DNA of 64,000 bases, taken from positions 43,648,001 to 43,712,000 of the forward strand of contig OZ231126.1 of the NCBI GenBank assembly GCA_965153355.1. The letters are read 5' to 3'. This DNA is from Flaccisagitta enflata (taxonomy: Eukaryota). Below, piece after piece: positions 1-62,548 of this stretch. The notes under the pieces were generated by a model, which saw only the letters and a program-made list of their open reading frames with translations, was not told where the DNA came from and ran no database searches. A program made the position numbers and the translations under genes. Position 1 is the first letter of the stretch; each line of letters opens with the position of its first letter.

Positions 1-1972
1 AGATAAAGATTGAACTAAGAACTACTCTGGATAATTGAAGTTATCTGAGGAGTATAAGTGACTGAGTCTATGTGAATATTCATCCATATATGTTGTGTCA
101 ATTAATATTCCCATGGACTCATTGAGTGTGACTACCTTCAGAATACAGAATGATAGATGAAGATTGTACTAAGAACTACTCTGGATAACTGAAGTGATCT
201 GAGGAGTATAAGTGACTGAGTCTATGTGAATATTCATCCATATATGTTGTGTCAATTAATATTCCCATTGACTCATAGTGTGTGACTACCTTCAGAATAC
301 AGAATGATAGATGAAGATTGAACTAAGAACTACTCTGGATAACTGAAGTGATCTGAGGAGTATAAGTGACTGAGTCTATGTGAATATTCATCCATATATG
401 TTGTGTCAATTAATATTCCCATTGACTCAAAGTGTGTGACTACCTCCAGAATACAGAATGATAGATAAAGATTGAACTAAGAACTTCTCTGGATAATTGA
501 AGTAATCTGAGGAGTATAAGTGACTGAGTCTATGTGAATATTCATCCATATATGTTGTGTCAATTAATATTCCCATTGACTCATAGAGTGTGACTACCTT
601 CAGAATACAGAATGATAGATGAAGATTGAACTAAGAACTACTCTGGATAACTGAAATGATCTGAGGAGTATAAGTGACTCAGTCTATGTGAATATTCATC
701 CATATATGTTGTGTCAATTAATATTCCCATTGACTCATTGAGTGTGACTACCTTCAGCATACAGAATGATAGATAAAAATTGAACTAAGAATTACTCTGG
801 ATAATTGAAGTAATCTGAGGAGTATAAGTTACTGAGTCTATGTGAATATTCATCCATATACGTTGTGTCAATTAATATTCCCATTGACTCATAGAGTGTG
901 ACTACCTTCAGAATGCAGAATGATAGATGAAGATTGAACTAAGAACTACTCTGGATAACTGAAGTGATCTGAGGAGTATAAGTGACTGAGTCTATGTGAA
1001 TATTCATCCATATATGTTGTGTCAATTAATATTCCCATTGACTCATTGAGTGTGACTACCTTCAGAATACAGAATGATTAGATGAAGATTGAACTAAGAA
1101 TTAATCTGGATAATTGAAGTAATCTGAGGAGTATAAGTGACTGAGTCTATGTGAATATTCATCCATATATGTTGTGTCAATTAATATTCCCATTGACTCA
1201 TTGAGTGTGACTACCTTCAGAATACAGAATGATAGATAAAGATTGAACTAAGAACTAATCTGGATAATTGAAGTAATCTGAGGAGTATAAGTGACTGAGT
1301 CTATGTGAATATTCATCCATATATGTTGTGTCAATTAATATTCCCATTGACTCATTGAGTGTGACTACCTTCAGAATACAGAATGATAGATGAAGATTGA
1401 ACTAAGAACTACTCTGGATAACTGAAGTGATCTGAGGAGTATAAGTGACTGAGTCTATGTGAATATTCATCCATATATGTTGTGTCAATCAATATTCCCA
1501 TTGACTCATAGTGTGTGACTACCTTCAGAATACAGAATGATAGATGAAGATTGAACTAAGAACTACTCTGGATAACTGAAGTGATCTGAGGAGTATAAGT
1601 GACTGAGTCTATGTGAATATTCATCCATATATGTTGTGTAAATTGATATTCCCATTGACTCAAAGTGTGTGACTACCTTCAGAATACAGAATGATAGATG
1701 AAGATTGAACTAAGAACTACTCTGGATAATTGAAGAAATCTGAGGAGTATAAGTGACTGATTCTATGTAAATATTCATCCATCTTTGTTGTGTCAATTAA
1801 TGTTCCCATTGACTCAAAGTGTTTGACTACCTTCAGAATACTGAATGATAGATGAAGATTGAACTAAGAACTACTCTGGATAATTGAAGTAATCTGAGGA
1901 GCATGAATGACTGAGTCTATGTGAATATTCATCCATCTTTGTTGTGTTAATTAATATTCATGTCGACTCAAC
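1..1972. repeat. 154-bp tandem satellite, about 12.8 copies, last copies degenerate
   Basis: Unit AGATRAAGATTGAACTAAGAACTACTCTGG...CAGAATGAT restarts at 1, 155, 309 and so on; the array runs off the window start. Confidence 0.97.
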
Positions 1973-1984
1973 AAATAAGTCGCT

Positions 1985-4165
1985 AGGTTTCATAATTTGG
2001 TTTTGGTTGGTAGGGTTGAGTTAGTTTGTTAGGGTTAGCATTAGGGTTAGGGTAGCAGTGGTAAGGTAAGGGTAAGTGGGTTTCAGTTGGGTTAGGGTTA
2101 GGGTTGCAGACCTATTAGAGTTAGGGTTAATGGGTTTGGGTTAAGCTTAGTGGGTTTGGCTTAGGGTCAGGGTTGGAGACCTAGTAACCCCAACCCTAAC
2201 TCAAACCCAGTAACCCTAACCCACTAACTCTTACATTTCCACTCTAACCCTAACCTTAATTATAACCTAGAGAGAGAAAGAGGGTTAGATAAGAGCTAGA
2301 GTTATGTTTAGGGTTAGTGGGGTTTGGTAAGAGTTAGTGAGTTAGGGTTAAGGTTAGGGTTGGAGACTTTCTAACCCTAACTATCTTGCCCTAACCCTAA
2401 GCTCAACCCCAACCTTTTTATTCCAACCCTAACCCTATCATCTCTCCTTAAACTCAAACCCTAACCCTAACATGCTAACCCTAACCCACATATCCTAACC
2501 CTAACCTTAAAAATATAACCCTAACCCTATCATCTATCCCTAAAATCAAACCCTAACCCTAAACTGTATGGATGAAGTTGCGGGGTATGGGTTAGGGTTA
2601 GATCTAATTTTTGAGGTACATAGATCTTACTGAAATGAAGGGTTAGGATCAGGGTTTGACTTCACTTTGGAGGGATGTTAAACTGAAATGAAGGGTTAGG
2701 GTTAGGGTTTGACTTCATATAGTGATACGAAGGGTTATGGTTAGACTTCACTTTGGAGGGACATCTTTCTGAAATGAAGAGTTAGGGTTAGGGTTTGACT
2801 TTACTTTGGAGGGATGTCCAACAGAAATGAAGGGTTAGGGTTATGGTTTGACTTCACTTTGGCGGGATGTCTTACTAAAATGAAAAGGAGGTTTGGGTTA
2901 GGGTTTGACTTCATATAGTGATACAAAGGGTTAGAGTTAGACTTCACTTTGGAGGGACATCTTACTGAAATTAAGGGTTAGGGTTAGGCTTTGACTTCAC
3001 CTACTGAAATGAAGTTAGGGTTAGAGTTTGACTTCACTTTTGAGGTATGTTTTACTGAAATAAATTGAAAGGTAAGGGTTACGGTTTGACTTCACATAGT
3101 GAAAAAAAAGAGTTAGACTTCACTTTTGAGGGACATCTTACTTACTAAAAGAAAAGGTTAGGGTTAGGGTCTTACTTCACTTTGGTGGGATGTCTTACTA
3201 AAATGAAGAGGTTAGGGTTAGGGTTTGACTTCATATAGTGATACGAAGGGTTAGGGTTAGACTTCACTTTGGAGGGACATCTTACTGAAATGAAGGGTTA
3301 AGGTTAGGGTTTGACTTCACTTACTGAAGTGAAGGATTAGAGTGAGACTTTGGAGGGATGTCTTAATAAAATAAAGGGTAAGGGTTAGGGTTAGGGTGCT
3401 AACCCTAACCCACATATCCTAACCCTCACCTTAAAAACATAACCCTAACCCTATCATCTATCCCAAAACTAAAACCCTAACCCTGAACTATATGGGTTAA
3501 GGTTAGACTCAACTTTAGAGAGACATCTTACTGAAATGAAGGGTTAGGGTTAGGGTTTAAACCGAAAGCGTAATAGTGCTATACTTTCTTATAACGCTAA
3601 CCCTAACCCTAACCCACGACGCTCATGAGCGTGTACATGGCGCTCACTTAGTGAAACATTAACCCTAACCCTAACCCTAACCCCCAAACCCTAACCCTAA
3701 CCTTGTTATTCAGCCCTAACCCTAACCCTAACCCTAACCCGAGAAACATAACCCTAACCCTAACCCAAGAAACATAACCCTAACCCTATCAGCTATCCTT
3801 AATCTCAAACCCTAACCCAAACCCTAACCCGTGCAACTGAAGTGCATTCGCGGGAATGGGTTTGAACCGAAAGCGAAATAGTGCTATAGTTTCTTATAAC
3901 GCTAACCCTAACCCTAACCCTAACGCTCATGAGCGTGTACATGCCGCTCACTTAGTGAAACATTAACCCTAACCCTAACCCTAACCCTAACCTCCAAACC
4001 CTAACCCTAACCTCATTATCCAGCCCTAACCCTAACCCTAACCCTAACCCGAGAAACACAACCCTAACCCTAACCCTAACCCTAACCCGAGAAACATAAC
4101 CCTAACCCTAACCCTAACCCTAACCCAAAAATATAACCCTAACCCTAACCCTAACCCTAACCCGT
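1985..4165. repeat. Interstitial telomere-like composite array; degenerate TTAGGG and CCCTAA tracts in alternating orientation
   Basis: G-rich tracts at ~1985-2176, 2281-2365, 2588-3397 and 3493-3558. C-rich tracts at ~2185-2268, 2371-2563, 3399-3485 and 3597-4163. Recurrent spacer GACTTCACTTTGGAGGGACATCTTACTGAAATGAAG. Confidence 0.95.
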
Positions 4166-4494
4166 ACAACAGAAGTGCATTCGCGGGAATGGGTTTGGTT
4201 TCATGCTAACGCTTTCTCTCGCCTAAGGCAACAATAGCGAGTTCACCACCGAGGCGGAGAGAAGCAGTCAGTTATCGGTAAGACCCTCGGATGGTCATTT
4301 CACCGATGCCTGCGATCGGCCAATGGCCGAGGTAGTGAGTTTCTTAACCGGCACGCGGGGAAGCGGGTTATTTTCGGTCAAGACTCGCGCATGGTCACCG
4401 AGCCTCTCTTTTCAGCTTCACCCTCATTTGACCGCTCCCGGTCACTACAACCGCGGGTCAATTTTCAACCACCGTTGGCCCGAGGAAGCGGCGG

Positions 4495-4502
4495 TATAAA
4501 AG
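4495..4502 (+). promoter_or_regulatory. Probable TATA box of the recombinase gene
   Basis: TATAAAAG in GC-rich context, 39 nt upstream of an ATG in Kozak-like context (GCCATG, ATG at 4534). Confidence 0.6.
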
Positions 4503-4533
4503 GCAGTCGGCTGCCGAAGTTTCATTCTTCGCC

Positions 4534-6347
4534 ATGAAACAATTTACCTGTCCGGTCTGCAAACGCCAAGAGCCGTGTACGTATGAAGGCGAGAATAAAA
4601 AGCCCACCATCCATTTGAACGTTCCTTGGCAGGGCCTTCCGTTAACAGTCACAAGCTCCGGCGAACAGTGCTACCCATGCCCGCGCTGCGAACTCGACGA
4701 GAACGGCGAGTCAAAGATCCGAACATGGACCCAAGCCGAGCTTCGAATTCACAAACGCCTGCGGCAACATTTCACCCGCCACCATCACGGCAAATTAGCC
4801 GATTTCTACACGCCCGAGGAGATAGTGAAATTTTATGATGACGCGCGTCGCCTACGATGCGAAGTGATCCACGGCCCCGAGATCGAGCAACGTGAAGAAC
4901 CGCCAACCAATTCATCCAAGGCTGAAAGCCCGGAACCACCACCAAAGCGCGTTTGGAAAATTTCATTGACTCCGTCAACCAACATTACCCTTCCTTCAAA
5001 CTTTGAAGGGTGGCTCGCCGGGGAAGTGAGTAAACTCACCGCTAAAACGTACAGCGGAGTGATCCGAATATTTCTCGAATTTCAACGAGCCAAGGGTGCG
5101 AAAGGCACCTTAGCGGATGTTTGGGACTTTGACGCCGTCAAATTATTCTTGGATGAAAAGAAGAGCCAGGCCAAGCCGTCGACCCTCTTTAATTACTTTT
5201 TCGCTTTGCAATCGGCGCAAAAATTCACGCAGCTTGAAGGGATCGCGGCACCAACAAAGCTCACGACGTTGAAGTTTGACTCTTTGGGAAAGCAACTTTG
5301 CCGGGCGAAGACGGCTCACTACAAGGTCATTGCTGCGGAAAAGCGCAAGAGCGGAATTAGTCTTCATCTCGTGAAAGAGAAGATCCTGGACGATCCCGCT
5401 CCTCGTACTCACTTTGACAAGCTCGTTCGTCAAGCTCAACAAGGGTTTTCGCTGACACCATCGGACTATCGCTGGGCAACGGGTTACGCGGCGTTCAACT
5501 TGCAGGCGAGTAACTTTAAGCGGAACGGGAATCTCGCCAAAATCTCGTACGAAACAGCAATCAAGCGCCTCAAGGCTGCGTTGAGGAAGGGCACCTCTTG
5601 CGAACTTGAGGTAACCGAAGCGACTAAGACAGGCGGAACCGAGGTCTTCTCAGTCATCCATTGTGACTGTATTGAAATCCTGCTTCATTACGGCAAATTC
5701 ATCCGGGCCAAGACAGCGAGCGGCTGACAGGACCCCGCTTTCTTTCTCAACAGCGTCGGGAAAAGGATTGGCAAAATCGCGCCGTTTATCAAGGCCGTGG
5801 CAAAATCGGTCGGCCTACCTTCACTCACCATCAAAGATTTGAGGTCTCAAATTGAGACAGAGGCTGCGTTTCGAGGTGATTTAGTCGACCGGGCAGAAAT
5901 CGCCAGTCATCTCGCTCATACAGAGGCAACGCGGGATCGTCACTACCTCCTCAACGACCACAGGCGCGTAGTCGAAAGGCGGCAAAGGAGCTAATTATGC
6001 TCTTAGACCGCGCAGAACCCGATGCTACAATGGACACGGACTCGGACGATGCGCAAGAAGGCGACTCGGATGAAGAAGCCGTAAGAGAATCGATCCCATC
6101 AACACCCACGGAGGATGCGGAGCCTACGGGGGAATCGAACCCTTTAACATCAGCGGAAGAGATCACAGAGCTACAGGAAAGCTCGCAAATAGATCGAAGT
6201 GTCACCGAGGAACCTGCCGAACTACCAACAGATGATTCAAGCTCAACGCCTGAAGAAGAGAACTCTTCCGTCAACATCCGTCACCTTCGAAGCGGGCGGA
6301 CCGTGACCTCGGAAATGAGGCCAAAGCCGAAGAAGAGACGTAGATGA
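4534..6347 (+). pseudogene. Intronless tyrosine recombinase (phage-integrase fold) with N-terminal Cys/His region, acidic tail and basic NLS-like end; about 603 aa if repaired
   Basis: ORFs 4534-5727 and 5797-5994 are one frame split by a single TGA (5725-5727); 5997-6347 joins after removing a CG at ~5965. Catalytic-type residues in order: R (NFKRNGNL, 5521), K (TKTG, 5626), KDLR at the HxxR position (5833-5844), H (LAH, 5917), Y (RHY, 5944). Core-binding-like helices (LTAKTYSGVIRIFLEF, KPSTLFNYFFAL). C-terminus RPKPKKRRR. Confidence 0.85.
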
Positions 6348-6528
6348 TCGCGGTGTTTTTTCTTTGTAATAGAACATGCCTACGTTTCTCCTATCACTGT
6401 TTATTTGCCCCATTCAGTCTCGGTCAAGGCGGTGGAACGCCGCAGTTTAACGGTCAATTTTTACCATCTTTCGGGTATGGGTCTAGTTAGATAACGAGGG
6501 TATCGGGTTTTCTCGTTAGAGTCGAAAG

Positions 6529-6581
6529 ATGGCCATGCACCACCATATGAGTCTGCCAATCCGTCAATTCCTTTAAGTTTC
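6529..6581 (-). rRNA. Two isolated conserved 18S motifs from the central and 3' part of the molecule
   Basis: GGCCATGCACCACCA (reverse of TGGTGGTGCATGGCC) and CCGTCAATTCCTTTAAGTTTC (reverse of GAAACTTAAAGGAATTGACGG). Confidence 0.8.
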
Positions 6582-6585
6582 GCAT

Positions 6586-7072
6586 CGTTATTGATCGTCA
6601 CTACATCCCCGTGCCGGGGGTGGGTAATTTGCGTGCCTGCTGCCTTCCTTGGATGTGGTAGCCGTTTCTCGTGCTCCCTCTCCGAAGTAGAACCCTTATT
6701 CCCCGCTACCCGTTATCACCACGGTAGGCCGGGCTCCTACCGTCGACAGTTGATAAGGCAGACATTTATTAGATCAGCCGCCGGCGCAAGGCCATGCGGT
6801 CAAGTGGAGTTATCCAGAGTTCATCAAACGGGACAGCCGCCACGGCGGAACCGCGGTGCGCCGATTGGTCTTGATGGGATAAAGACATCGCGACCCTTGC
6901 GGGCCCCGATGGCGATGGCATGTATTAGCTCTAGAATTACCACAGTTATCCAAACGCCGCATCCGAGGATGCGGCCGAAGATCTAAGGAACCATAGCTGA
7001 TTTAATGAGCTGTTCGCGGCTTAGCCATTTGGCTGACACTTGCATGGCTTTATCTTTGAGACAAGCATATGA
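6586..7072 (-). rRNA. 18S rRNA 5'-domain fragment, about 490 nt, truncated
   Basis: Reverse complement contains TCATATGCTTGTCTCAAAGAT, GGATAACTGTGGTAATTCTAGAGCTAATACATGC and ACGGCTACCACATCCAAGGAAGGCAGCAGGCACGCAAATTACCC, all conserved eukaryotic SSU motifs. Confidence 0.95.
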
Positions 7073-7318
7073 TCAGGAACGAGCAGTTGGCTCGCCACTA
7101 GAGGGATCCAAAGGGGAAAAGAAAGAAAAACTCGCTAGTCCCAACTAACGTCACCAGGGCGGACAAAGACAGGCTGCGGACGTGCAAACATCGGACAAGG
7201 GGAAAGGCCAACACCAACCCCAGCCCTCTTCAAAGAGGGATACGGTCTTAGCGGACAGAGGGACAGGCAAAGAAAGCAGCGAGTCAGAGAGAGAGAGAGA
7301 GAGAGAGAGCTGGAAGTA

Positions 7319-7380
7319 GGTAATTTGCGTGCCTGCTGCCTTCCTTGGATGTGGCTGCGGTTTCTCATGCTCCCTCTCGG
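7319..7380 (-). rRNA. Second short 18S fragment duplicating 6623-6684
   Basis: GGTAATTTGCGTGCCTGCTGCCTTCCTTGGATGTGG is identical in both copies, then they diverge. Confidence 0.9.
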
Positions 7381-7397
7381 TCGCAGGGACCGCGTCG

Positions 7398-8030
7398 CTG
7401 CCCCTCGCAAAAAAAACGGGGCGGGGTCACATCACCATCACCCTGGCCGCCTGGACAAGGGTGCTAGCCGGGACCCAGGAGAAGCGACAGGTCCATCGCG
7501 AGCCGATTTGAGGTGCGGCGACTCCCCGTGCTGCCAGCGAGGAATCGGGTTTTGGGTCTGAGAAAGCTCGTCGCATTGTTTTCATAGCCTCAGCCGTGAG
7601 GCTCGCGTATATGCCTCTCCCGATGGATGGATCGATCCAGGTCGCCCCATCGACGGTCGCTCGTAGTGTCGAGGCTCGGTCCCGTCGCCAACCGATCCCC
7701 GCTGATTTTTCGCCCCTACGGTGCTGGTCGCGTAAGATGGCGGTGCATCGTCGCGGACGGAAGAAGCCCATCGCGCTGCCTCTCCTACCCTCGGTCTCTC
7801 GTAGTGTCGAGGCTCGGTCCCGTCGCCAACCGATCCCCGCTGATTTTTCGCCCCTACGGTGCTGGTTGCGTACGACGGCGGTGCATCGTCGCGGACGGAA
7901 GAAGCCCATCGCGCTGCCTTTCATACCCTCGGCCAGGAAGCCCACTTCACTGCCCCTCCCGGAGAAAGGACGGGGCCGGGTCGTGTCGCCATCACCGGAG
8001 CCGCTTGGACAAGGGTGCTAGCCGGGACCC
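7398..8030. repeat. GC-rich subrepeats: ~80-bp direct repeat (7398-7476, 7950-8030) enclosing a 138-bp tandem duplication (7654-7932)
   Basis: Identical core TGGACAAGGGTGCTAGCCGGGACCC at 7452 and 8006; CGGTC(G/T)CTCGTAGTGTCGAGG starts at 7654 and 7792. Confidence 0.9.
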
Positions 8031-8154
8031 GCGGGTAGCGGTGAGACCGTCCGATGGTCTCTCTGGGCGGAAGGGAGGTCGCGGCGAATCCACCGGACCC
8101 GCCACACCAGGCGAGCCGAGGCCTCCCCTACCCAGTAAGGGAATTCCACGTGAC

Positions 8155-8350
8155 AAGAGGGGCTAGCGGGGTTGAAATCCATTATGAAGCAATTTGGCTT
8201 CTGGGTGATATTGACAGGTCAATTTGACAAAAAGTCCCTTATATATGTATCTCTATACATTATAAAGGCTATATAGAGCAAATCGGCCTGCCTATCTGAC
8301 CAACAAATGAAATCGCTTTAACATGGATTTCAACCCCGCTAGCCCCTCTT
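8155..8350. repeat. About 196-bp imperfect palindrome with perfect 28-bp outer arms
   Basis: AAGAGGGGCTAGCGGGGTTGAAATCCAT (8155-8182) is the reverse complement of 8323-8350. Imperfect symmetry continues inward to an AT-rich centre. Confidence 0.92.
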
Positions 8351-8392
8351 TTAACCCGGATCAAAAACGGGAACCCTTTATTTTCTATATAA

Positions 8393-9097
8393 ATTAGGGT
8401 TAGGGTTAGGGTTTGACTCACTTTGGAGGTACGTCCTTCTGAAACGAGTAAAAATGGGTTAGGGTTAGGGTTAGGGTTAGACTTCACTTTGGAGGTACAT
8501 GTTGCGGGTTAGGGTTAGGGTTAGGGTTAGGGTTTGACTTCACTTTTGAGGTACGTCCTTCTGAAACGAGTAAAAATGGGTTAGGGTTAGGGTTAGGGTT
8601 AGACTTCACTTTGGAGGTACATGTTGCGGGTTAGGGTTAGGGTTAGGGTTTGACTTCACTTTTGAGGTACGTCCTTCTGAAACGAGTAAAAATGGGTTAG
8701 GGTTAGGGTTAGGGTTAGACTTCACTTTGGAGGTACATGTTGCGGGTTAGGGTTAGGGTTAGGGTTAGACTTCACTTTGGAGGTACATGTTGCGGGTTAG
8801 GGTTAGGGTTAGGGTTAGGGTTAGACTTCACTTTGGAGGTACATGTTGCGGGTTAGGGTTAGGGTTAGGGTTAGGGTTAGACTTCACTTTGGAGGTACAT
8901 GTTGCGGGTTAGGGTTAGGGTTAGGGTTAGGGTTAGACTTCACTTTGGAGGTACATGTTGCGGGTTAGGGTTAGGGTTAGGGTTAGGGTTGGACTTCACT
9001 TTGGAGGTACATGTTGCGGGTTAGGGTTAGGGTTAGGGTTAGGGTTTGTATTCACTTTGGAGATACCTCTTACTGAAAGGAAGGGTTAGGGTTAGGG
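8393..9097 (+). repeat. Homogeneous composite telomere-like array, (TTAGGG)2-4 plus a fixed spacer
   Basis: Units GACTTCACTTTGGAGGTACATGTTGCG and GACTTCACTTTTGAGGTACGTCCTTCTGAAACGAGTAAAAATG between TTAGGG runs; same spacer family as 2590-3397. Confidence 0.95.
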
Positions 9098-9239
9098 GTG
9101 AAATATTCACATTGATTCAGTGCTCTTTGAATCACTTCAGATTGCCAGGGTAGATCTTAACTTAGATCCTATTCAAACATTCTCTATCTTGTCTCTTGAA
9201 ACATTTTTTGAGTCAATAGGAATATTAATAGACATTAAA

Positions 9240-9676: not shown

Positions 9677-10312
<636 letters not shown>

Positions 10313-11547: not shown

Positions 11548-12057
11548 TTAAGGAAATTTACGGTGTCGATGACCTATCAGTACAAATGGCCTTTCTCCAT
11601 CTTGGCAAAAAAAGCAGATGAAAAATCCTCGATTAAAATTTGTCAGACAAGACTGACACCCATTCGGTTTTTACGACTGCCCCTTAATTATCTCTGCCGG
11701 TGAGATCGGACTTTTTTTCTGAGTGGCGGACAGGCAACTATATAGTAGGCTGCGTCCTTCCGTTGGTCCGTCCTTTGAACCGTCGCGTCTGTCTGTCCGC
11801 CCATGATGCTTGAGTTGAAAGATGTGAAATCGCGCATTTTCGCCCCCGCCATCTATTCCACGAGTAGCTTAAATAATATATATTTTATTAAGCCATGGAC
11901 TAATATCGATGGGTTCACATCAAGCAAGACAGAGCGCAGTTGTGCGAAGTCAAAGGACCATTGTACGACGTGCGGCGTGGTCAATGGGCACAGAGAAGTG
12001 CAAGATTAAGAACTCTCTCTCTCTCTCTTTCTCTTTCTCTTTCTGTTTCTCTCTTTC

Positions 12058-12181
<124 letters not shown>

Positions 12182-14794: not shown

Positions 14795-18659
<3,865 letters not shown>

Positions 18660-20036: not shown

Positions 20037-20131
<95 letters not shown>

Positions 20132-20224
20132 GGTTTTGTTGTTGTTGTTCGAAGCTATCGTCAAAAAAGGTCGTTTTAATGTCGTTGTAAATGTTGTTTA
20201 AGGGCGTCGATGATGACCGAATGT

Positions 20225-20316
<92 letters not shown>

Positions 20317-20321
20317 GCTGG

Positions 20322-20406
<85 letters not shown>

Positions 20407-20452
20407 GATGCTGGTGATGTTGTTGTTGTTGTTGTGGTTGTGGTCGTTGTCC

Positions 20453-20526
<74 letters not shown>

Positions 20527-20586
20527 ATTGTTATTGTTATTGTTGTTGTTGTTGTTGTTGTTATTGTTATTGTTATTGTTATTGTT

Positions 20587-20628
<42 letters not shown>

Positions 20629-22300
20629 GCTGTTGTTGTTGTTGTTGGAATTTTAATTTAAAATCAATCTTTCCCCTCCTTCAGAGGCTCGTTTGGACAC
20701 GACGACGCCGAAATGTCAGACTGCGCTCCACCTTTGCCTCCGTCGGGAAAACAAAGCCGCTTCCGATTCCGAGTATCGAGCAGTCGCCGCTTTTCTCGTC
20801 GACGCCGGAGCGCCCCTCGAAGCCGCCGACAAATGGGGATACACGCCGCTTCATAGGTGAATGCTTTTCTCGTAACTAGGTCAACCTTGTTTGGTCAGGT
20901 AATGAGTAGGGGCGGTAAGATACGAAAACAAAATCACAAAGAGTCACCGACGGACTAATCGCACGTCCAACCAATCAAACAATCGATGTCGTGACTGAGA
21001 GACAACAAAAACTTTTAAAATCAGACGAGTGCTGCTGAAGAATTATGCTGGAATCCCTTATATTGTGAAAAGCAACCACTATATGTGCTGGCTAGGTCTT
21101 CAAATTTTTTATCGAATCAAATCAAATGAAGTAATCTTAAATCTTGGTGTGCATTGGGCAGATGTTACTTGATGGAACATTGGGACATACAAACTCCATC
21201 CATTGCGAAAAGGGAAATTAAACTTGCATTCTTGAGCTCGCTATTCAAAAAAAAAAAAAAAAACTGATTTGCATAATGCTGTCAAAAGCTTTACGTCTTG
21301 CCTGCGAATAACACATTTCATAATAGTCAGTTGACACAACACAGGGAACAATTAATTATTTTTTGAGATTTAATGAGAATGATATTTTCTTATTGCAACT
21401 TGACTCGAATGCAGAAATCGTAAACCTTAGTTTGACATCCCATAAATTGGGTGGATCTTGTGGGATATAAACTTGTCGAAATTTTACTACGTCGTAATGG
21501 TAACAAGTGATCACTTTGAGACACGGTGATTCCTGGTCTCGTCGCCTAACGAGATGCGCGGGCTGTTATGGCTCTTTATCCATGAGGCTATGACCCTGTC
21601 GTGGTTAAGGCCAATCATGACCATTGCCATCAGCGACGGAAGGAAATCTCGTCCTTCCCGCACATGCACCTGAACTCAATCATTTCTACGTTTTCAGGGC
21701 TGCTGATCGCGGATTCACGGATTTATGCGTTCAAATCTTGTCCACGTGCACGCGGAGTTTGAACGCCGTTTGTGAGCGGCGTTGGGGTCGATTTTCTCCT
21801 CTGACGCGCGCCGTAATTCGCGGTCACGTGGACACGACGAGGACGCTGATGGAAAAAGGCGCCGATATACATCACAAAGGAGAAGACGGCAAAACACCGC
21901 TTAACTGGGCAGGTGAGGGGCGAGATTGACTTTTTTTGTTCCGAAGGGGGGGGGGGCGATCATGTAAAAATGCCGAAAACTGTCATGTAGCACAGCTTTA
22001 GTATATCCGGCGGTCACTCCATATCTTTGTCTCTTAACTTGATTGACGTTAAAGAGCAGAAGGCGTTACCAGACCTGTACATCTTGTAGTAGCGAGTAGC
22101 GCCGCTACTCGGAAGGGCTGAATGATACTCGGAAGGTTTGGATGGAAGGGAAGCAGGAAGGAAGGAAAGAAGGGAGGAAGGAAGGGAGGAAAGAAGGAAG
22201 GAAGGAAGGAAGGAAGGAAGGAAGGAAGGAAGGAAGGAAGGAAGGAAGGAAGGAGGGAGGTAAAGAAGAAAGAAAAGCCAAAGGCGAAAAAAGCGAAAGC

Positions 22301-30889: not shown

Positions 30890-36729
<5,840 letters not shown>

Positions 36730-41266: not shown

Positions 41267-43314
41267 TTTTTCTTTCTTTCTTTCTTTCTATTTTCTCATT
41301 GCTATTTTTGTTTTCCTCTTCTTTTTTTTAAGTTGGGGGCTCTACCGCGGGCCTCCCCTCATCGCGGGGCCCCCTCATCGCGGGGCCCTAGGCTTAAGCC
41401 TCTTAAGCCTATTGGGAAGTCCGGCTCAGCCCTAGCCTTAACCCAAAGTGCAATTTTGTGGGAAAAGGTCCATGTGGATCCCTGCTGACAAGGAAATGAA
41501 CTTGCGCATCACTCCTTGTTTCCATGAAGTTAGACTTCATCTGCATTCTGAAGGAGGATGGATATTTCTAATATAAACTAAATAAGCTTTTATATTCCAC
41601 TATCATTGTGTGGTAAGTAAAATGACTAGATCTGCTGATGACATTTTCTTGTGCTACACATGAAATCAGGATTAATCTAACAGTAGCGACAGAAAATTTG
41701 ATACATAACTTTTTGACACTATCTTTTGACTTATTGATAACTTTGGTTATTATTCAATATCAAACAAAACATCATTTGAAAGTTTATCAAAGGTATTTCA
41801 AAAACTGACTTTATGCGAGCTGGTCAGTCCTTTGGTTTGACCTCAGTATTGAGATGAAGTATGGTAGTTTTGATTTTGCTACTCAGGATTGGAATTTATG
41901 TAACTGAACTTTGCATCTGTGTTTTACTACTCCAGCTTAAATTTACCTTAGAAAAATCAAAAAGGCAAAAATTCTTGAATACTATAGATCAGCAGATGAA
42001 ATGATTGACCAACTCATAGCCTGACACAGCAGCACAAGGAGCTGTGGAGCAAAAATGAAGTATAGAAGGATTTACAGATAAAATTCTTCTAAAATGATAA
42101 TCATTTGACCATCATGATCAAAATCATTATTGTGCCTAGACCTTACCAAATTACCTCCACAAGAAGAGCTTTTGAAGCACTTTGGAAGAGTTTTCAAATA
42201 AAATTCAATGCAGGGTTGAAAAATACTCTGATTAGCCATATATCCATGTGAGATGGCGATCAACTTTGTATCAAATTTTCTGTCGCTACTGTTATCTGCA
42301 CTAAAAGTCTTTGATCCATAACGAAACGCATGCTTTTCTTTCGACAGCTTCTACTTGTCTCCGGCCTTTACCATGGGTGGAATAAGAGCGTCTATGCTAT
42401 CGATATCTGGCTCCAGTTTCGCGACCATGTCCAAACCGCTCACTTTGGAGGTGTGGTTGTCTTACATCCTCTTGTGGTTTTTGTACGGCTTCGCGCTGTT
42501 CATCATCTCGAAAATGAGCAAGAAAATGTGCGAGGAAATACCCTCCGCTAGCCCAGTGGAGGAGGAATTCACCCTTTTTCAGGCGGTTTGGGCATTTTCC
42601 TTGTCGACCTTGCAGTATGGAGCGGATAAGAACACCAAGTCGCTGGGCGCGAAAATTTTGCAATTTTTTTGGTGTGGGTTTACCATCTTTTTCACGGCAA
42701 TTTACACGGCGAATCTCGTCGCTTTTTTGTCCAACGAACCTGAAAAACCATTGCAATCGGTCGAGGAAATTGGGGGTTCTGAGAGAGGCCTGATATTTTG
42801 GCGAGTTTCGAACGACTTAGACAAGTTGGATGATATTGTCGGTGACGACCAAGTAGGCATCCAGCTCAATGGCAATCTGACGAAGAAAGACGCAGTCGCT
42901 TTGAAAAAATGGCTGGATTCTGGGAAAGTTTTAATCGCTTACGACACCGACATCGATTTTGTTGGAGAGTATATCCCAAATCTGTACAAACTCGAAGGAT
43001 ATCTTAGCTTTGAGGCATTTGGATTCGCCGTGAGGAAAAATTGGGCTTTTGCCGACCAGATGAGAGGGGTGTTCGTGGGATACGGAAAGCGGGGATACTT
43101 CAATCAGCTTTACCGAAAGTTCGTAAAACGAGAGGTCAAAGCGTCTCAAAGAGCTCAGTCGATGAATTTTGAGAATGTTTATCCCGTTGTGATAGCGATG
43201 CTATGGGGAATGGGGTTTTCTATCGTTGTCACTTTTCTGTCAATTGTCATTGGAACTGGCAAAAGAAAAGTATCAACCATCAGACAGTTCAGAACATCAA
43301 CTCCGCCTTTTTAA
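38399..43314 (+). CDS. Divergent ionotropic glutamate receptor / IR-like channel lacking an ATD, 2 exons, about 420 aa
   Basis: Exons 38399-38694 and 42348-43314, joined by a phase-2 GT-AG intron. S1 (GICVDLW), M1 (KPLTLEVWL), pore loop (WAFSLSTLQYG), M3 YTANLVAFL (SYTANLAAF-like), S2 (FGFAVRK) and a C-terminal TM helix. Confidence 0.88.
38802..39564. mobile_element. Non-autonomous hAT-like element in the receptor intron
   Basis: TIR CAGCCCTGAT; 8-bp TSD GTTATAGG (38794-38801, 39565-39572); subterminal CGGGCCCG motifs. Confidence 0.88.
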
Positions 43315-54649: not shown

Positions 54650-57600
54650 TTCGTCACGATCTTCCCATCTTGGCGTCGAACATGAGCTCCGGAGCTGATG
54701 ATCCTTCGACGCCCATGACACGTCCTAAACTCCACCAGAGATGAGGCAGCGTTTCTGCCCAAGATGATGACTTATGCTCGCCAACCGCAAGTCTCTCTCG
54801 GATCTCGACCATTTGCTTAGCAAGGCCAAGTGAAGGAAAGGAGCAACATTCGACCCTCCACGATTTCCAAAACGCATCCACATCGCGGGACAAAGACGCT
54901 CCATTGAATTATGAGTCGGCGACAGAGTTGACGCCTTGTTGCACCAGATCCAGAGGGGCATGACCGGATGTTGATGGATTGAGGATATGATTCGGAGTGA
55001 GGGCCTCAGAGTCATTTGGATCATCGCTGAGCGCTGTCAGAGATCATCGATTGAGACTTCCTTCAACTTCGACGACAGCAGTGTTGAAGGCGCGACGTGG
55101 GAGGATGGCGCTGTCGAGATGGAAGCAAGATGGCGCTTGAAGAGAGCTGACTTGAGCCTTCCCCACACCCCTCCATAGTGCGTTCTCGGCGTGATGTGAA
55201 ATCCTGCACCGGCGCCGTGCCGCTGCAATTCGGGAGCTGGGACTGAGCTTTTGGTCCGTTCCATTTCCTTCTTGAGGATATTATTGGCTACTTGTAATTA
55301 GATCTGCCTCCACAGTTCGAGTGAATCATGGATTCCTGCTGCCTTGCTGCAAAGCGGATGATTTGTGATTTACTATCGTATCGGCTGACATATGAAGAGC
55401 AATTCCACATGGACGGCATGTGACACGAAACAGGTGAACATCAGCATCCACACCTGTGATCAGCACGCCTGCTCATTTCTGCGATGAATGCTCCTATGAC
55501 GTCCAATCCAGTCTCTGCAAAGACAGGCGCATGATTGACGCGATTTGATGGAAGATTGGCCATTTGCTGATTTATGTCTTCTTAAAGTTCTTCTGGGTGC
55601 CTAAAGCATGTGTTGACGATGCTCTTGACAGCCTGAAGACCTTATAATCCACACAGTCTGGCTTAATTGACACAATGTATGCTTCTTGCACCCGCGAAAA
55701 TCATTATGATGATAATGGCGAATTAATGATTTCACATCCTCGTCTTTTGGCGGCAGGATGAAGGGAAATTTAGCGTCATGTGCGATGTCGGCGTTTAATC
55801 GGCCGTCGATAGCTGGCGCGATACCGCTGCCGCCGGTTTAAAGGATTCAATTTCCGCATCTCCTTGTTCTTTATGATAAAGTCATGACGGCTTTCTGGTT
55901 TAAAGACTTTCCCAACTTCCAATTGTTCTAAGACGTCGGAATAATGATGCCACGCATTGATTTGACGCAGTTGTTTGCGCACTTCTCCAAAACGCTTTGG
56001 CGCTACTCTCCGGTTTAGGAAGAGATCCTTTGCTGCTCGTGTCTTCGCCCTTGATACGCTCTCCACCTTTGATCATGGCGAGAACTATGCCGGGCTGATC
56101 CGCAATTTATGCATCCATTTTCCCCGGAGAAGTTGCTATAAGAAGTATCGCGCCAGCCACTTGGTTTTTTCACTTTCAGCCACATACAGAGCGGCGACTT
56201 GTGCAGAAAAATAGGGCACGTCGCGATGTTCTGCCTTTGGCCATTGATCTTCAAGACGCAAAAATGCAGGACCGTGATGGAATTGACGCCATTTTTCGGC
56301 TTCATGGGCCTGAATGCCTCTGCTGCAGTGGTCCGCTGGGTTGTTTGACGAGTCAACCTAGCGCCTACTGTTGAGGATCAGACCCACTATGGATCTTGGA
56401 GAGACGATTGGCTAAGAATACAGGCCTCGGTTTTGCGGGATTGTAAATCATCTTCAGTGCAGATTCAGAATCAGACCAAAATCTAACGACAAGATTGTCC
56501 AAGTTGATGGTCCTTCCGACGAAGCGCTTGAGCTGCAATTCGCTTTTTCTGCGGATACACCACGCGTTGAACGCTGTTATGATGAGAGGCACGTTTTGGA
56601 TTGAGAGGAATGACGTGAGATTTGGAGGCAATGAATGAAATATGAACATCTCCATTTCGGCTGACTTGACGCCGATATGCAACTGCTCCATATCCGCCTT
56701 TTTGGAGCCGCAGACGTAGAATAACTCTGATTGTGATTTCCGCAATGTCGCTGTTGTGTCGACGCCGCCATTCCACCAGCGTTCAACTCGATATTGCTGT
56801 AGAAGAGGCCAAGATGAAGTGTAGCGGAAGAAAGATTCTTCGACGCTCTCTTCCAAGGGCGAATCCCAGGTCCCACTTCCTGTGGACGACACAGAGCTGG
56901 AAGATGTCGTCTGCCGATGTATGCGCTTGGGCCCCAAAATCCCAATGGATCATAAAGGTGTTTGGCTTCTATGGAGACCAGTTGACGAGAGGGTAAGTTT
57001 TTGCTCTAAGAGTTTTGGAATTCTCTGCCGCAGATGAAGATGAAGACGCCTTTCCGCCGAGGAAGCCATGAGACGCCCAACACCTTCGTCGGCGCATCAT
57101 CTTGCTTATCTGAAATGGGGATTGGCACACACGGATCTCCATCCATCAATTGTCGCTCGTTACTTTTCCACTTCACCAGATCCATCCTGCCTTTCACATC
57201 GCTGCCACTGAATCCACCTCAGCTGCAGTGCTTCGTCGACCGAACCAATTCTCACTTCCGTCGCCGACGAGAAGCCGTGGTGCGAATAAGAACGTAGACG
57301 TTGTAGGGATACTTGGGCCGGATTACTTCAGCATGCTGCTTCCTGACGGGAAAGATGTGACGAATGAGCTGGATTGGCTGCCGAAGACGCGGGATAGGAA
57401 CAGATTCCAAATGGCTTCTCGTAGAGTACGGTCTTTGAACTAAAAGAATCCGAATAGACCAGCGCCGCCAGGATGGATGCGGATTTCGTGGAAAACGCCT
57501 TTATATCACACATAAAGGCGATTTCCACCGACGAAAAACATGAGGATGTCCATTGCGCTATTCATCGTTTGGGCCCGACGCGCAAATTGTTGAGTGAGAT

Positions 57601-58675
57601 CCTGCCGGGTCGCCGCATGTGTGATCGCAGATGCCGCGCGTTTTTCCACGCAATTCCACTATATGAAGCGGTAAATACCAGCGCGGCTTCTCAATGCTGT
57701 CGTCGTCGTCGACGCTATCAATCTCAATCGCCACTCCCGTCTCGTAAAATTTCTCGATTTCACGGAAGACTCTTTCTTTGAAGGCTGGATCGCGCTTGAA
57801 GCGGAAACGTTGATTGCAGAGCCGCTTCATCGCAGTAGGTCGTGACCTCACTCTTCTCAGAATTTCCATGATTTTTTCGTGATGAAATTTCCATGTGACA
57901 GGAGCCAAATATTTTTTCACAATTGGGCAAAAATATGTCTTTTCCTCTAACATTTTGCACGCTCTGATATTTTCGGGAATCACCCATCTCCTCTTGCGAA
58001 ACGATTGATGATGCAAAGTCATGGTAGAAGATGCGGTCAATGTTGCTGTTGAGGACGCGATTGTCGAGGATGCGATCGATGTTGTCGTTAAGGACGCGGT
58101 CATCCGTTGCGATAGCGTTGATCGATGCAATATCTCGTCCTCTCTTCCCCGTCTTTCCACATACAGTCCAACCGAATAGACATCTGAAGCAAGTCAAAGA
58201 TCCTGAAGGCCCTCGGCGGATTTCTTGAGCGACGGCGGCATCCGCATGCGCCGCTCCGATGATCATCATCACACCGCCTTCAGCTTCTGGAAATTTATGT
58301 TCTGATGTGAGGTTGGCAGATAGGTCGCGGAGAAAAGGAGGAATATCGCGTTCACTGCTAACAAATCACCCACCAACGCGTCGTTGACGCCGACTACATA
58401 TTCCTCGTCGACCGATTGCATGGTGAATGATGTGATGAAACGATCCTCAACACACGATTTCCTACAGTAATCACCGTCATTTGCACTGTTTTTGTGGAAT
58501 CAGAAGACTGCGAATGACACTGGTACTGATCACGTCGCGATCAGCGCCTGAGTCGATCATAGCGTATATCGTCCTTCTGCGCACCCGAAGAATTGTTTAT
58601 GATAGTCACTGGAACGATCGGACGGACAACGCCGTCGAATGAAGAGACGGACCGCGACGTTGCCGTCGCCGCCAG
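54650..58675 (-). pseudogene. pol: BEL/Pao pol (protease, RT, RNase H region, integrase) with many stops and frameshifts
   Basis: YAMIDSGAD (~58550), WYLPLH, CDIKAF, LVKWKSN, KVLGVSW, FWSDSESAL, FLANRLSKI, TGLDVIGAF, GGVWGRL and FWKSWRVE, scattered across frames. Confidence 0.9.
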
Positions 58676-61600
58676 TCATGCCGTGGCGTTAGGAGAGATT
58701 ACTTCCGTTGGATCGGCTGCCTCCGTCGTCGACGGAGCTGTTGGTGCTGCTGCAGCCGCATCCTCTGACTTTTTGAAGGGAGCCAGCGGTACTTTATTTC
58801 CCTGCTTATTTCTCCTTTCTTCTCTTCCTTTTCTTTCTTTCTTGTAGGTGCGCCCGTGGAGAATTGTCGCGTGCCGCTTCTTACAGGTCTGGCAAGTTGG
58901 TCTGTTCGCGCATCCTTTGGCGTTGTGTCCTGGCGCGAGGCAGTGGAAGCAAAGACGACGAGACATGATCTTCTGAACTCTCGCGTCCACTTCCAACTCT
59001 AACAACTGATGACACTCTTCCGTTTGATGCATTCCACTGCAGACGTTGCAGCGGTCCGTCGACTGCACTTTTTGCTTGCCATTGGTCAAGGCATCCTCAT
59101 ATGATGAAGGCGCCTCTTTTTCTGTCGTCGCAACTGCTGCCACTGATGCTGTTTTGCAACTTGCGCCTTTGTTGCGCTGAATCACCGCCCATGTCTCGAT
59201 CATGTTGACCAAGTTGTCGAATGAAAATGATTGTCCATTTTGGGCTGCTTCATGTTGCTTTTCCCAGAATTTATCTGCAAGATGAGGGACCCTCTTATTG
59301 AGAATCTCCTGCAGCAGCTCGTCACGATAGCATTGTTGCACTTCTCCACAGGTCCTCGCAATCTTCTTTGCCTTTTGCAACCTTGCAGACAAATTGAAAT
59401 GCCTTGCATGGTCGGCCGACTGGATCTTCGCCTCCGCGACGATTTCGTTGAACAGCGCCGCAATGTTGCAGCGTCTTGCCATGAAGACGACGTCCATTTT
59501 TGCGAAGGCGTCGTCAATCTCTCCTCTTGCTGTCGCTTCAGTTGCCCCAATCGTCGCAGTTTCAATGATCTCCTTTGCCGGACCAGCAAACCACTTAGGC
59601 AATTCCAATAAGATGTCCATTTGCGTCAAGCCTTCATGCTTCTCAGCATCTTTGAACTTCCTCTTCCACATCATGAAGTCGGTGGATGAAAGCTCCTGCA
59701 GAGGCTTCTCGGGTCTTGCTCTCTCTAATGCTTTGAGGCCGACCTCCCTTGCTCGCATGTGATCGTTGTACGCCGCTCTTTCCAAAAACATGTCCAGAGC
59801 CGGATTGTTGGGCATCTGAACGTGGACTTCCGGTTGACGGGCTACTTGATGATGCTCCACTTGATGATACGCTGGGGGTTGTTGGGTAAACGCGTATTGA
59901 CCCCCGACTTTGACCGGAGATCTCTTTTTGGTGGTTTTTACACTCCACCCAACTTCTTCTTGCTGATTCATTTGTTGTTGACGATCATCTTGATGGAATC
60001 GGGGAGCATCAAAATCTTGGCGGACGTATTGTCGCTGTTGTTGTTCTTCTTTACGTTGTTTCTCTTCTTCTCTCGCTGCGGCAAGGTCAAAGTCTCTCTG
60101 CTGAATCTGCATCTTCAAACTATCCACTTCCTGCTGCAAACGTTGATTCTGCTGGATGACTTCCGCTTGAGGCGTTGCTAGAGGCGCTTGCGCTACTTTT
60201 GGCGCCTTCGGCTGCAATCCACTCATTGTCTTCTTGGGAGCGACTTTTCTTCTCTCCTTATCTTGCAGCTGCTGTGCCAACTTCGCGTCAGCGGCCTCCT
60301 GCCTCTGCCTCCTGCGCATCGCCTCCGTTGCATCACCTCCGCTTCCGGCTGTGTTGAAGACCTTTTCCTCTTGATGGGGAAGATCAGTCTCCCTTCTAGC
60401 AGAACCAATCTGCTTCTCGAAGATCACTTCCGGTGCGGTAGGGAGAATCGTTGCTGCTGGGGTTTGATGATGCTGATACTGATGCTGTTGCTGTTGTTGA
60501 AGCCGTTGCTGCTGCCACTGTTGATGTTGAAGCTGCTGTTGCTGGTCAGGATGCTGTTGCTGTTCATTCTGCTGCTGCAGTTGATGCTGACGCTGTCCTT
60601 GCTGCTGCTGCTGCTCCAAATGTTGCTGCTGCTGCATCGGCTGCTTGACGGACGTTTCCACTGACTGCACATGATGTTGCTGTAAGTTCGAATTGAACAG
60701 TCCCGGATTGAAGTTTTTGAAGATAGATCGACGGTCTTTTGGCGGATGCTGCGGCTGCTGCTTGTCCAGCTCAGACAGTTGTCTAAGCTTCACATCCCGC
60801 TGCTCTAAAGCTCCACCAATGCCGCCGTCGTTCAGGCTATTCCAGTGCTTTCGTTGCATTTCTGCCGCATTGTTGAATACTCCTGCTCTTCTATCTTCAT
60901 CTCGTTGCTGCTGCTGGCGAAAATTACACATTCTGTCGTATAACTCTTTGTCTTCTTGTGATGAGCTTCGCTGTTGGAATCCCAATGGCACCGCGATCGG
61001 CGCCTTTGGAGCTGCTGCTGCACCACCATCTTCACCTTCAGCCATCATGCGCAGACGTTGTTCTGCAAGGCGTTGCTGTCTCTCTTCTTCTGTTTCTTCA
61101 CTGACGTTCATGCTTTCGACAGGATGGTTATTTGACGCTGGAGGATCCACTACCACCGCTGGGATCGCGGCGGAAGGTTGCTGTTGCTGCTGCAGTTGCT
61201 GTTGCGTACGTTCATCTGCATTATTTTGCCGCTGTTGTTGTTGTTCATGCGGCTGCATTACCGGTTGATGTTGTTGCAGCCCTTGTTGTTGTTGCTGTTG
61301 TTGCTGCTGCTGCTGCTCGTGTTGTTGCTGTTGCTGAACCACAGGTTGTGGCACCGGCTGCAAGATTTGACGTTGTTGTTGGTCTTGTTGACGAAATTGT
61401 TGAAGTTGCTGCAACTGCTGCTGCTGCAACAGCTCTTGCTGCTGCCGTTGAGCTGTCGTTTGCTGCTGCTCCTGTGGTCGGTGGAGTTGACGTTGCTGTT
61501 GGAGTTGCTGCTGCTGCATCTGCAATTGATGCTGCTGCTGTTGCTCCTGTTGCCGTCGCTGCTCCTCCTCCCGTTGTTGCTGCTGCATATCATCTATCAG

Positions 61601-62368: not shown

Positions 62369-62548
62369 CTCCGCCGTGATGTTCTTTCATCGCTACAAAC
62401 GATCCGACCTCGGACACTGATTCAAACCGAAGCGAGATACACGAGGACGTTAGCGGTCGAGACGGTGTCGCCGTTACGCGGCTGCCATTGTCCAATTTCG
62501 CTTTCGGAGGTCGAAGATGGAAAGAATGTGTCGCTTAAATTGTTGAAA

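Follow-up and report, generated by a model that had tools for sequence, protein, structure and literature searches.

Cryptons, according to what is reported of Goodwin's 2003 work, are DNA transposons coding for a tyrosine recombinase (YR) and nothing else. Other eukaryotic mobile elements that use a YR are DIRS, Ngaro and VIPER, which carry internal and terminal repeats, and the Starships, giant and cargo-laden DNA elements of fungi that are driven by a captain recombinase and some of which target ribosomal DNA (rDNA), namely the 5S genes. A further set, which includes R1/R2, Pokey and SART/TRAS, finds a safe place for insertion in telomeric repeats or in the many copies of rDNA, with a reverse transcriptase plus endonuclease, or a DDE transposase, instead of a tyrosine recombinase. 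Here we describe a locus from Flaccisagitta enflata, located in a stretch of 64,000 nucleotides (assembly GCA_965153355.1, contig OZ231126.1, positions 43,648,001 to 43,712,000 of the forward strand; hereafter the window, in whose coordinates all positions are given), where an intronless YR gene lies between telomere-like repeats, next to a decayed piece of rDNA. This gene, at 4534-6347, is on balance probably a recently disabled copy from an undescribed, multi-copy family of YR-only mobile DNA elements that occurs in marine animals and resides in repeated DNA.

Two of the described groups provide the nearest terms of comparison. In the available portion of a survey of Cryptons (Kojima & Jurka 2011, PMC3212892), animal Cryptons appear as elements devoid of terminal repeats; rDNA and rRNA receive no mention there, and the telomere passages (12 of 23 places) concern the origin of telomerase and WOC, not insertion sites. 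A Pfam-based clade scheme, as given in the accessible part of its source (PMC13465315), assigns DUF3504 to CryptonA, PF00589 to DIRS/Ngaro and DUF3435 to Starships. As for nimaviruses, the available text of Kawato et al. 2023 (PMC10871703) describes YRs made of a C2H2 zinc-binding part, a SAM-like domain and the recombinase itself, reports (TAACC/GGTTA)n or 28S rDNA with duplication of an 11-mer as the insertion sites used by those of endogenous nimaviruses, and mentions related YRs without any link to a virus in decapod genomes.

The gene occupies the left part of a GC-rich island (4199-8392), which has a GC content of 0.51-0.64 over 4001-8000 as opposed to 0.32-0.45 in most neighbouring segments (Table 1). 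Its reading frame was aligned to an intact relative of 603 amino acids (aa), P0001, with identities of 469/478 and 124/126 (98%) and no introns. Two lesions interrupt it, a stop codon in frame (5725-5727) and, near 5967, a frameshift, yet only 11 of the 603 residues are changed with respect to P0001, and because of this the copy is judged from its sequence to be dead but young. Three of the differences turn Arg codons into TGN, a change that looks like CpG decay. A TATAAAA at 4495-4501, 33 bp ahead of the ATG at 4534, is the putative promoter. Neither in the three pieces of the gene nor in ten further open reading frames (ORFs; 98-196 aa) of the island was any other Pfam family detected, and reverse transcriptase, RNase H and methyltransferase domains were all absent from the island in the Pfam search. 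The YR is thus its sole recognisable gene, in agreement with an earlier note made on this DNA from the letters alone, which had seen no reverse transcriptase, DDE transposase or capsid gene there.

The predicted protein has the fold expected of the tyrosine recombinase superfamily, a helical core-binding domain together with a catalytic domain. The AlphaFold model (mean pLDDT 75.8) contains a two-domain core, for which the top Foldseek matches in the PDB are XerD, Cre, XerA and lambda integrase. Core alignment of residues 148-505 with VIA gave Z scores of 12-13 to Brujita integrase, Cre, XerA and XerH over 260-283 aligned residues, versus 4.9 only for the protelomerase TelA. The catalytic set, assigned through motif order and spacing rather than by superposition of residues, comprises R330, K365, K434xxR437, H462 and Y471 in P0001 numbering. 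Among 28 aligned members of the family R330, K365 and R437 are invariant and H462 and Y471 at least 90% conserved, the surrounding motifs being NFKR (28/28), KTGG (27/28), KDLR (26/28) and HLAH...Y (27/28); in KDLR a Lys replaces the first His of the usual HxxR.

From end to end, the protein consists of an N-terminal Cys/His domain, the SAM-like core-binding domain, the catalytic domain, a long acidic disordered tail and a basic C-terminus (...LRSGR...KKRRR). Residues 1-121 give a confident beta-plus-helix model (pLDDT 90, pTM 0.82) with conserved positions C6, C9, C49, C52, H73, H79, H84 and C109. When compared with 48,161 solved chains, this domain had no match at Z of at least 5 (best Z 2.6), which does not by itself prove a new fold. 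The acidic tail ends in a basic motif, (V/T)(R/K)xLRx(G)R, followed by a K/R-rich end, in 25 of the 28 members (6290-6344 in the window); presumably this motif resembles the arginine anchors that bind the acidic patch of nucleosomes, as in the tethering of episomal viruses to chromatin. Sequence profiles recover little of this architecture: PF00589, PF12012 (DUF3504) and PF11917 (DUF3435) match none of the 28 members at E<=1, SAM-like domains match three of them below threshold and zf-C2H2_6 matches one weakly, and the family profile has one chance-level match (E 0.6) among PDB sequences.

The architecture of the element is Crypton-like, with a YR as its only enzyme. Shared with Cryptons are the single intronless YR gene, the lack of a reverse transcriptase, the size of a few kb and the presence in many animal phyla, and also the lack of terminal repeats described for animal Cryptons in the available text of the survey (PMC3212892). 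The differences lie in the additional N-terminal Cys/His domain, the long acidic tail and the conserved basic C-terminus, and the domain that defines CryptonA, DUF3504, is not found in any of the 28 members. DIRS and Ngaro have a reverse transcriptase and RNase H, of which there is no trace beside the window YR, and their recombinases fall in PF00589 according to the accessible part of the clade scheme (PMC13465315). With the Starship captains there is a resemblance in that both belong to YR-driven eukaryotic DNA elements and that DUF3435 clusters are among the look-alikes found by a protein language model, at 0.91; the window family, in contrast, lacks the Pfam match. On these matches it stands outside CryptonA, DIRS/Ngaro and Starship as Pfam defines them. 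The nimaviral YRs, compared by description only and from the available text (PMC10871703), have a zinc-binding, SAM-like and YR architecture that the window protein may share, and like it they are associated with telomere-motif repeats and rDNA. They reside, however, in crustacean viral genomes of 200-580 kb and are linked to (TAACC)n, whereas the window YR is the only gene of a unit of about 2-4 kb in a host with TTAGGG-type repeats.

The family is large and nearly devoid of annotation. At 90% identity the P0001 cluster has 94 members; most of the 15 listed are 603-604 aa long and found on 1-25 contigs each, and 11 of these 15 are on contigs of 2322-3286 bp. A word-seeded search recovered 31 relatives with 40-98% identity at E<=1e-3 among 7999 scored candidates, all of them from ENA, Logan or JGI assemblies, none with a name and none with a Pfam domain. 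The profile built from 28 relatives retrieved, out of 1.84 billion representatives, 194 proteins with E<=1e-3, of which 72 pass <=1e-10 and 32 pass <=1e-30; the 194 include a second tier of 420-480 aa without the N-terminal domain. Of 20 clusters examined, 7 bore names: two were plain 'hypothetical protein', and the other five were proteins from fishes and Trichoplax labelled uncharacterised, hypothetical or unnamed. Look-alikes in a protein atlas are likewise eukaryotic 'hypothetical proteins', with Chordata and Arthropoda the commonest phyla among the few members for which the phylum is known. Relatives of the YR were absent from 125 candidate stretches in a scan of viral contigs and from 600 in a scan of prokaryotic genomes; a metagenome scan yielded one confirmed related locus (L001) out of 580 pattern matches. 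Parts of the island occur in 20 of 24 listed public sequencing runs, nearly all of them marine metagenomes, and at least half of its words in 8, across 8 studies. Three RNA runs have word shares of 0.42, 0.37 and 0.25, which are not used as evidence of expression. Taken as a whole, the data support a genuine tyrosine recombinase as the product of the gene, and for it a eukaryotic family that is widespread, multi-copy and unannotated.

Two peculiarities were observed among the distant relatives. Six of them (P0132, P0139, P0144, P0147, P0159 and P0162), some from fishes, have a SET domain at the C-terminus (E 1e-10 to 1e-15); to our knowledge no fusion of a recombinase with a methyltransferase of this kind has been described. 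Also, the cluster of P0107 (E 1.5e-15) is found on contigs of 74-506 kb, as compared with 2-5 kb for the close family, and a large virus or a well-assembled eukaryote may be the source of its members.

The surroundings of the gene are made of telomere-like repeats. Dimers of TTAGGGTTAGGG occur 68 times in the window, where shuffles predict 0.01, and all 68 fall within 2041-9097. Minus-strand (C-type) sites occupy 2389-2562 and 3601-4160, and plus-strand (G-type) sites 2041-2103, 2696-3555 and 8394-9097. Composition changes sharply at both edges of the island, which abut telomere-like hexamers (...GGGAATGGGTTTG on the left, TTAGGGTTAGGG on the right). The earlier note had drawn a GC-rich island with C-strand repeats to its left and G-strand repeats to its right, and the GC profile and the strand positions bear this out; the internal order that it gave (TATA box, intronless YR, antisense 18S, GC-rich subrepeats, palindrome) was recovered as well by means of Rfam, the P0001 alignment and the repeat search. 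Its description of the island as bracketed by telomeres holds for the polarity of the repeats and fails for their nature. Both flanks are complex satellites with hexamer runs of at most about five and without telomere arrays, as judged by TRF, and the switch from C to G recurs without an insert within 2010-4198, a stretch with four or more alternations of C and G blocks and with three empty C-then-G junctions.

The tandem units of about 320 bp to the left of the island each terminate in ...GTGCATTCGCGGGAATGGGTTTG, and the start of the island coincides exactly with the end of the second unit. Further left, the G-type 'GACTTCACTTTGGAGG' satellite (2583-3322) belongs to the same family as the satellite of the right flank. 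Inverted similarity between the two flanks was considered as a special feature and discarded, since the telomeric hexamers alone account for it. The entire telomere-like mosaic, of about 7 kb, is bracketed by inverted copies of a 154-bp satellite (1-1959 and 9102-9234), which may point to an inversion or fold-back of this region long ago. A ligand-gated ion channel domain (Lig_chan, PF00060, E 7.7e-20) of the ionotropic-glutamate-receptor type is encoded by an exon-like ORF at 42322-43311 on the plus strand, and because the contig also carries this exon, which favours an animal host, the locus appears to be interstitial in an animal chromosome.

Downstream of the YR gene, the right part of the island resembles an antisense rDNA unit. 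The 18S 5' domain is clearly recognised; in the adjoining 6340-6600, Rfam found no rRNA match, and the short pieces listed in Table 1, which we take to be universal rRNA motifs, were identified by reading. A hit of the small nucleolar RNA guide type at 6460-6476 marks complementarity to rRNA, and most of the 18S gene is missing between the pieces. Among the GC-rich repeats, an 84-bp pair (7395-7476 and 7947-8030, 81%) brackets a 138-bp unit present twice at 7654-7932 (95%), in an order reminiscent of an rDNA intergenic spacer, where a spacer promoter and enhancer repeats precede the gene promoter. The palindrome folds as DNA with -47 kcal/mol (z -7.8). Its origin as an inserted miniature inverted-repeat transposable element was rejected, there being no target-site duplication and no second copy in the window, and the left arm being common to relatives.

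Chance ORFs of 7430-8163 were used as proxies to follow this rDNA-like part in protein clusters. At 93% identity they retrieved three ENA clusters, with 25, 28 and 21 members, and there were others at 96%, 81% and 53-63%. One ENA relative (P0250) also crosses from the spacer into the 63-bp 18S piece (7316-7378) at the same junction, and two other ENA proxies stop at the same stop codon inside the left arm of the palindrome. By this evidence 7316-8166 is a multi-copy unit that exists in variants; true rDNA would give the same result. The contigs that hold the proxies measure 1.7 kb at most and give no sign of the YR gene.

Table 1. Features of the locus, in window coordinates
Feature	Position	Strand	Basis
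154-bp satellite, 12.7 copies; left context of the mosaic	1..1959	+	TRF
Telomere-like mosaic, alternating polarity	2010..3548	.	repeat search and motif positions
Mosaic, G-type blocks	about 2010-2175, 2285-2365, 2590-3395, 3485-3548		
Mosaic, C-type blocks	about 2179-2260, 2370-2560, 3400-3480		
Two tandem ~320-bp units, ~91% alike; CCCTAA-rich runs alternating with unique spacers	3549..4198	-	
5' non-coding region of the YR gene	4199..4533	+	direct reading
YR gene, intronless, disabled	4534..6347	+	alignment to intact P0001
Diverged short rRNA-like pieces, antisense, colinear with 18S	6440..6594	-	reading
rRNA-like piece CTAGTTAG	6483-6490		
rRNA-like piece GGCCATGCACCACC	6531-6544		
rRNA-like piece CCGTCAATTCCTTTAAGTTTC (21 nt)	6561-6581		
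18S rRNA 5' domain, model positions 37-473	6595..7059	-	Rfam SSU_rRNA_eukarya, 300 and 292 bits
18S 5' end remnant, then spacer like an external transcribed spacer (ETS) with (GA)n at about 7280-7309	7060..7315	-	
Second copy (92%, 63 bp) of the 18S piece 6620-6682	7316..7378	-	
GC-rich repeats	7395..8030	.	repeat search
Imperfect palindrome, 28-bp perfect arms, AT-rich centre of about 150 bp	8145..8360	.	
G-strand telomere-like satellite, 56-bp unit = (GGGTTA)3-5 + GACTTCACTTTGGAGGTACATGTTGCG (27-nt spacer)	8394..9097	+	
Single inverted, diverged (67-69%) copy of the 154-bp satellite	9102..9234	-	
Microsatellites, examples	9680-10250, 12013-12179, 16972-17587, 20037-20647, 33084-33240 and others		

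Comparison with relatives at the level of DNA involves one distant locus, the metagenomic L001 (3801 bp), which encodes an intact frame of 713 aa with 41% identity to the window YR. The earlier note had regarded YR homologs in settings without telomeric or rDNA sequence as evidence against its reading, and such a setting was encountered for this distant locus only. The motif GTGCTAGCCGG(G/T)ACCC is common to L001 and the island (z 3.3, reached by 2 of 200 shuffles) and, having been chosen post hoc, serves as a lead only. Upstream of its recombinase gene (10-203), L001 carries a unit of about 29 nt (GATACTGCCTCGGTNAAACTCCTTNGACA) in two to three direct copies, which could be protein-binding sites; the 5' region of the island contains no repeat family matching them, and no direct repeats were found in it.

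The relationship between the gene and the rDNA-like sequence beside it can be read in several ways. The whole of 4199-8392, with YR, rDNA module and palindrome, may form one mobile unit lodged in a G-strand telomere-like tract, its rDNA having been acquired through imprecise excision by an ancestor that resided in rDNA, as in specialised transduction; we hold this possible though rather doubtful. Both edges of the island are sharp, some runs hold up to 0.76 of its words, above what either half alone could supply, and, more circumstantially, 11 of the 15 listed contigs of the P0001 cluster are about as long as the interval that separates 4199 from the internal repeats (6620-7476). Edges, run shares and contig sizes are all hints of a composite unit and none of them shows linkage. 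The rDNA-like part is moreover multi-copy with variants, and the odd junction of the 18S piece and the start of the palindrome arm recur in ENA relatives, but such abundance does not show linkage because true rDNA is multi-copy too. The short proxy contigs without a YR gene speak against a composite unit, as does L001, with no rRNA match in the 1.3 kb downstream of its gene, and no copy that spans the junction was seen. Conversely, the YR element may have inserted in antisense orientation into an rDNA unit (the 3' half of 18S, or 28S) that was then silenced, internally deleted and embedded in subtelomere-like satellite, in which case the rDNA would be target and flank. Favouring this, the rRNA-like pieces of 6440-7095 are colinear with an antisense rDNA unit and begin about 100 bp past the YR stop codon, with ETS-like spacer and spacer-type repeats following upstream of 18S in the expected order. 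The well-known existence of rDNA-specific elements (R1, R2, Pokey) counts in the same direction, and a related kind of YR, that of whispovirus, inserts into 28S rDNA according to the available text of PMC10871703. Nevertheless, rDNA is absent to the left of the element, although the remainder of the gene ought to lie there, and L001 again shows no rRNA. Between 18S position ~490 and the YR gene there are only pieces of 8-21 nt which, by eye, look more diverged than the 5' domain, a difference left unexplained by one origin with later deletions. We consider this second origin unlikely.

Repeats of the C strand to the left and of the G strand to the right had led the earlier note to propose a telomere-capped linear molecule or an integrated episome. 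The three further insert-free C-then-G modules at 2179-3548, which resemble a chain of tiny capped units, might be added to this, as might the capacity of rDNA spacers to hold replication origins and the C-terminal LRx(G)R motif (25/28), which from its sequence may be likened to the arginine anchors of episomal viruses. An integrated linear mini-replicon seems most improbable. In place of uninterrupted arrays the flanks have satellites whose runs reach about five hexamers at most, the polarity switch recurs, the island starts on its left where a tandem ~320-bp unit ends, and the locus is interstitial, in a 64-kb stretch with a host-type ion-channel exon. In addition, Pfam finds no replication gene among the ORFs of the island, the palindrome is formed by two 28-bp arms about 150 bp apart and not by a continuous resolution site, and the fold of the enzyme, integrase-like rather than protelomerase-like, leans against it. 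A chimeric join of reads from a transposon copy, rDNA and telomeric satellite would be favoured by the multi-copy nature of all components, which invites mis-joins, and by a mosaic that is bracketed by inverted satellite copies. Such an assembly artefact is very unlikely: unrelated runs from several studies hold 0.46-0.76 of the island words, and two internal junctions (18S piece to spacer, spacer to palindrome arm) are shared by ENA contigs, evidence that covers the joints inside 4199-8392.

The reading that we favour, with fair though not high confidence, is that of a YR-only mobile DNA element of an undescribed family. Since this copy sits in a 7-kb telomere-like mosaic directly beside a decayed rDNA fragment, the niche of the family may be insertion into telomere-like hexamers and/or rDNA, by analogy with the distantly comparable recombinases of endogenous nimaviruses, the nearest documented parallel, which insert into (TAACC)n and 28S rDNA. 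Based on the established chemistry of tyrosine recombinases, we infer that the 603-aa protein would bind sites at the ends of the element and would excise it as a circle through a Holliday-junction reaction involving R330, K365, R437, H462 and the nucleophile Y471, the circle then being re-inserted into the target through site-specific recombination at a short core shared by both. The fold, the conserved catalytic residues, the widespread multi-copy family, the lesions of this copy and its repeat setting stand as observed; movement as a circle, target preference and membership of the rDNA in the element are inferred. The earlier note, which had proposed a YR element that targets or carries telomeric repeats and has captured rDNA, is thus supported in part, for the recombinase and its family, and its remaining points, together with movement of the 4.2-kb island as a single unit, stay hypothetical.

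Several observations weigh against this reading. The element is present once in the window, and the DNA comparison within its close family covers this copy only; the runs that hold most of its DNA may be the source sample of the window itself. Directly left of the island there are only 13 nt of degenerate G-type sequence, followed by C-type units, while the right flank is TTAGGG-type, and a simple site-specific insertion into one array would not yield flanks of opposite polarity. Around its gene, over 340 bp upstream and 1.3 kb downstream, L001 has neither telomeric repeat nor rRNA match, and its non-coding DNA has no significant similarity to the island (5' z 0.7, 3' z 1.9).

A more far-reaching version, which we regard as a tentative and improbable one, would take the island as a full copy of a new class of animal element: about 4 kb long, inserted in TTAGGG repeats, equipped with a new zinc-binding N-terminal domain, an rDNA-derived module (spacer-promoter-like repeats and truncated 18S) retained from an earlier life in rDNA, and a C-terminal arginine anchor for a hold on chromatin, and a cellular cousin, perhaps even the source, of the telomere- and rDNA-specific integrases of nimaviruses. 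The literature searched yielded neither a small YR element of animals with ties to telomeric repeats or 18S nor any animal element combining all the features of the island, as the earlier note had supposed.

Beyond the locus, the window is unusually dense in microsatellites, among them (TC)n, (GT)n, (TTG)n and (AG)n. A 1236-aa open frame at 56365-62386 on the minus strand has glutamine-rich stretches, two CCHC-like knuckles near its end and neighbouring ORFs; it had no match in a Pfam search and is probably the remnant of a retroelement gag/pol gene.

Among eukaryotic transposons, those that depend on a tyrosine recombinase are the class least understood. The family to which this gene belongs is common in marine samples and extends, at low similarity, as far as fishes and Trichoplax, while being invisible to Pfam and nearly nameless. 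Its confidently modelled N-terminal domain, without a solved relative, is a candidate for a new DNA-targeting module. If telomere-like repeats or rDNA are indeed targeted, the family would offer a small and tractable animal system for the study of safe-haven integration, and could point to the source of the integrases of large DNA viruses of crustaceans.

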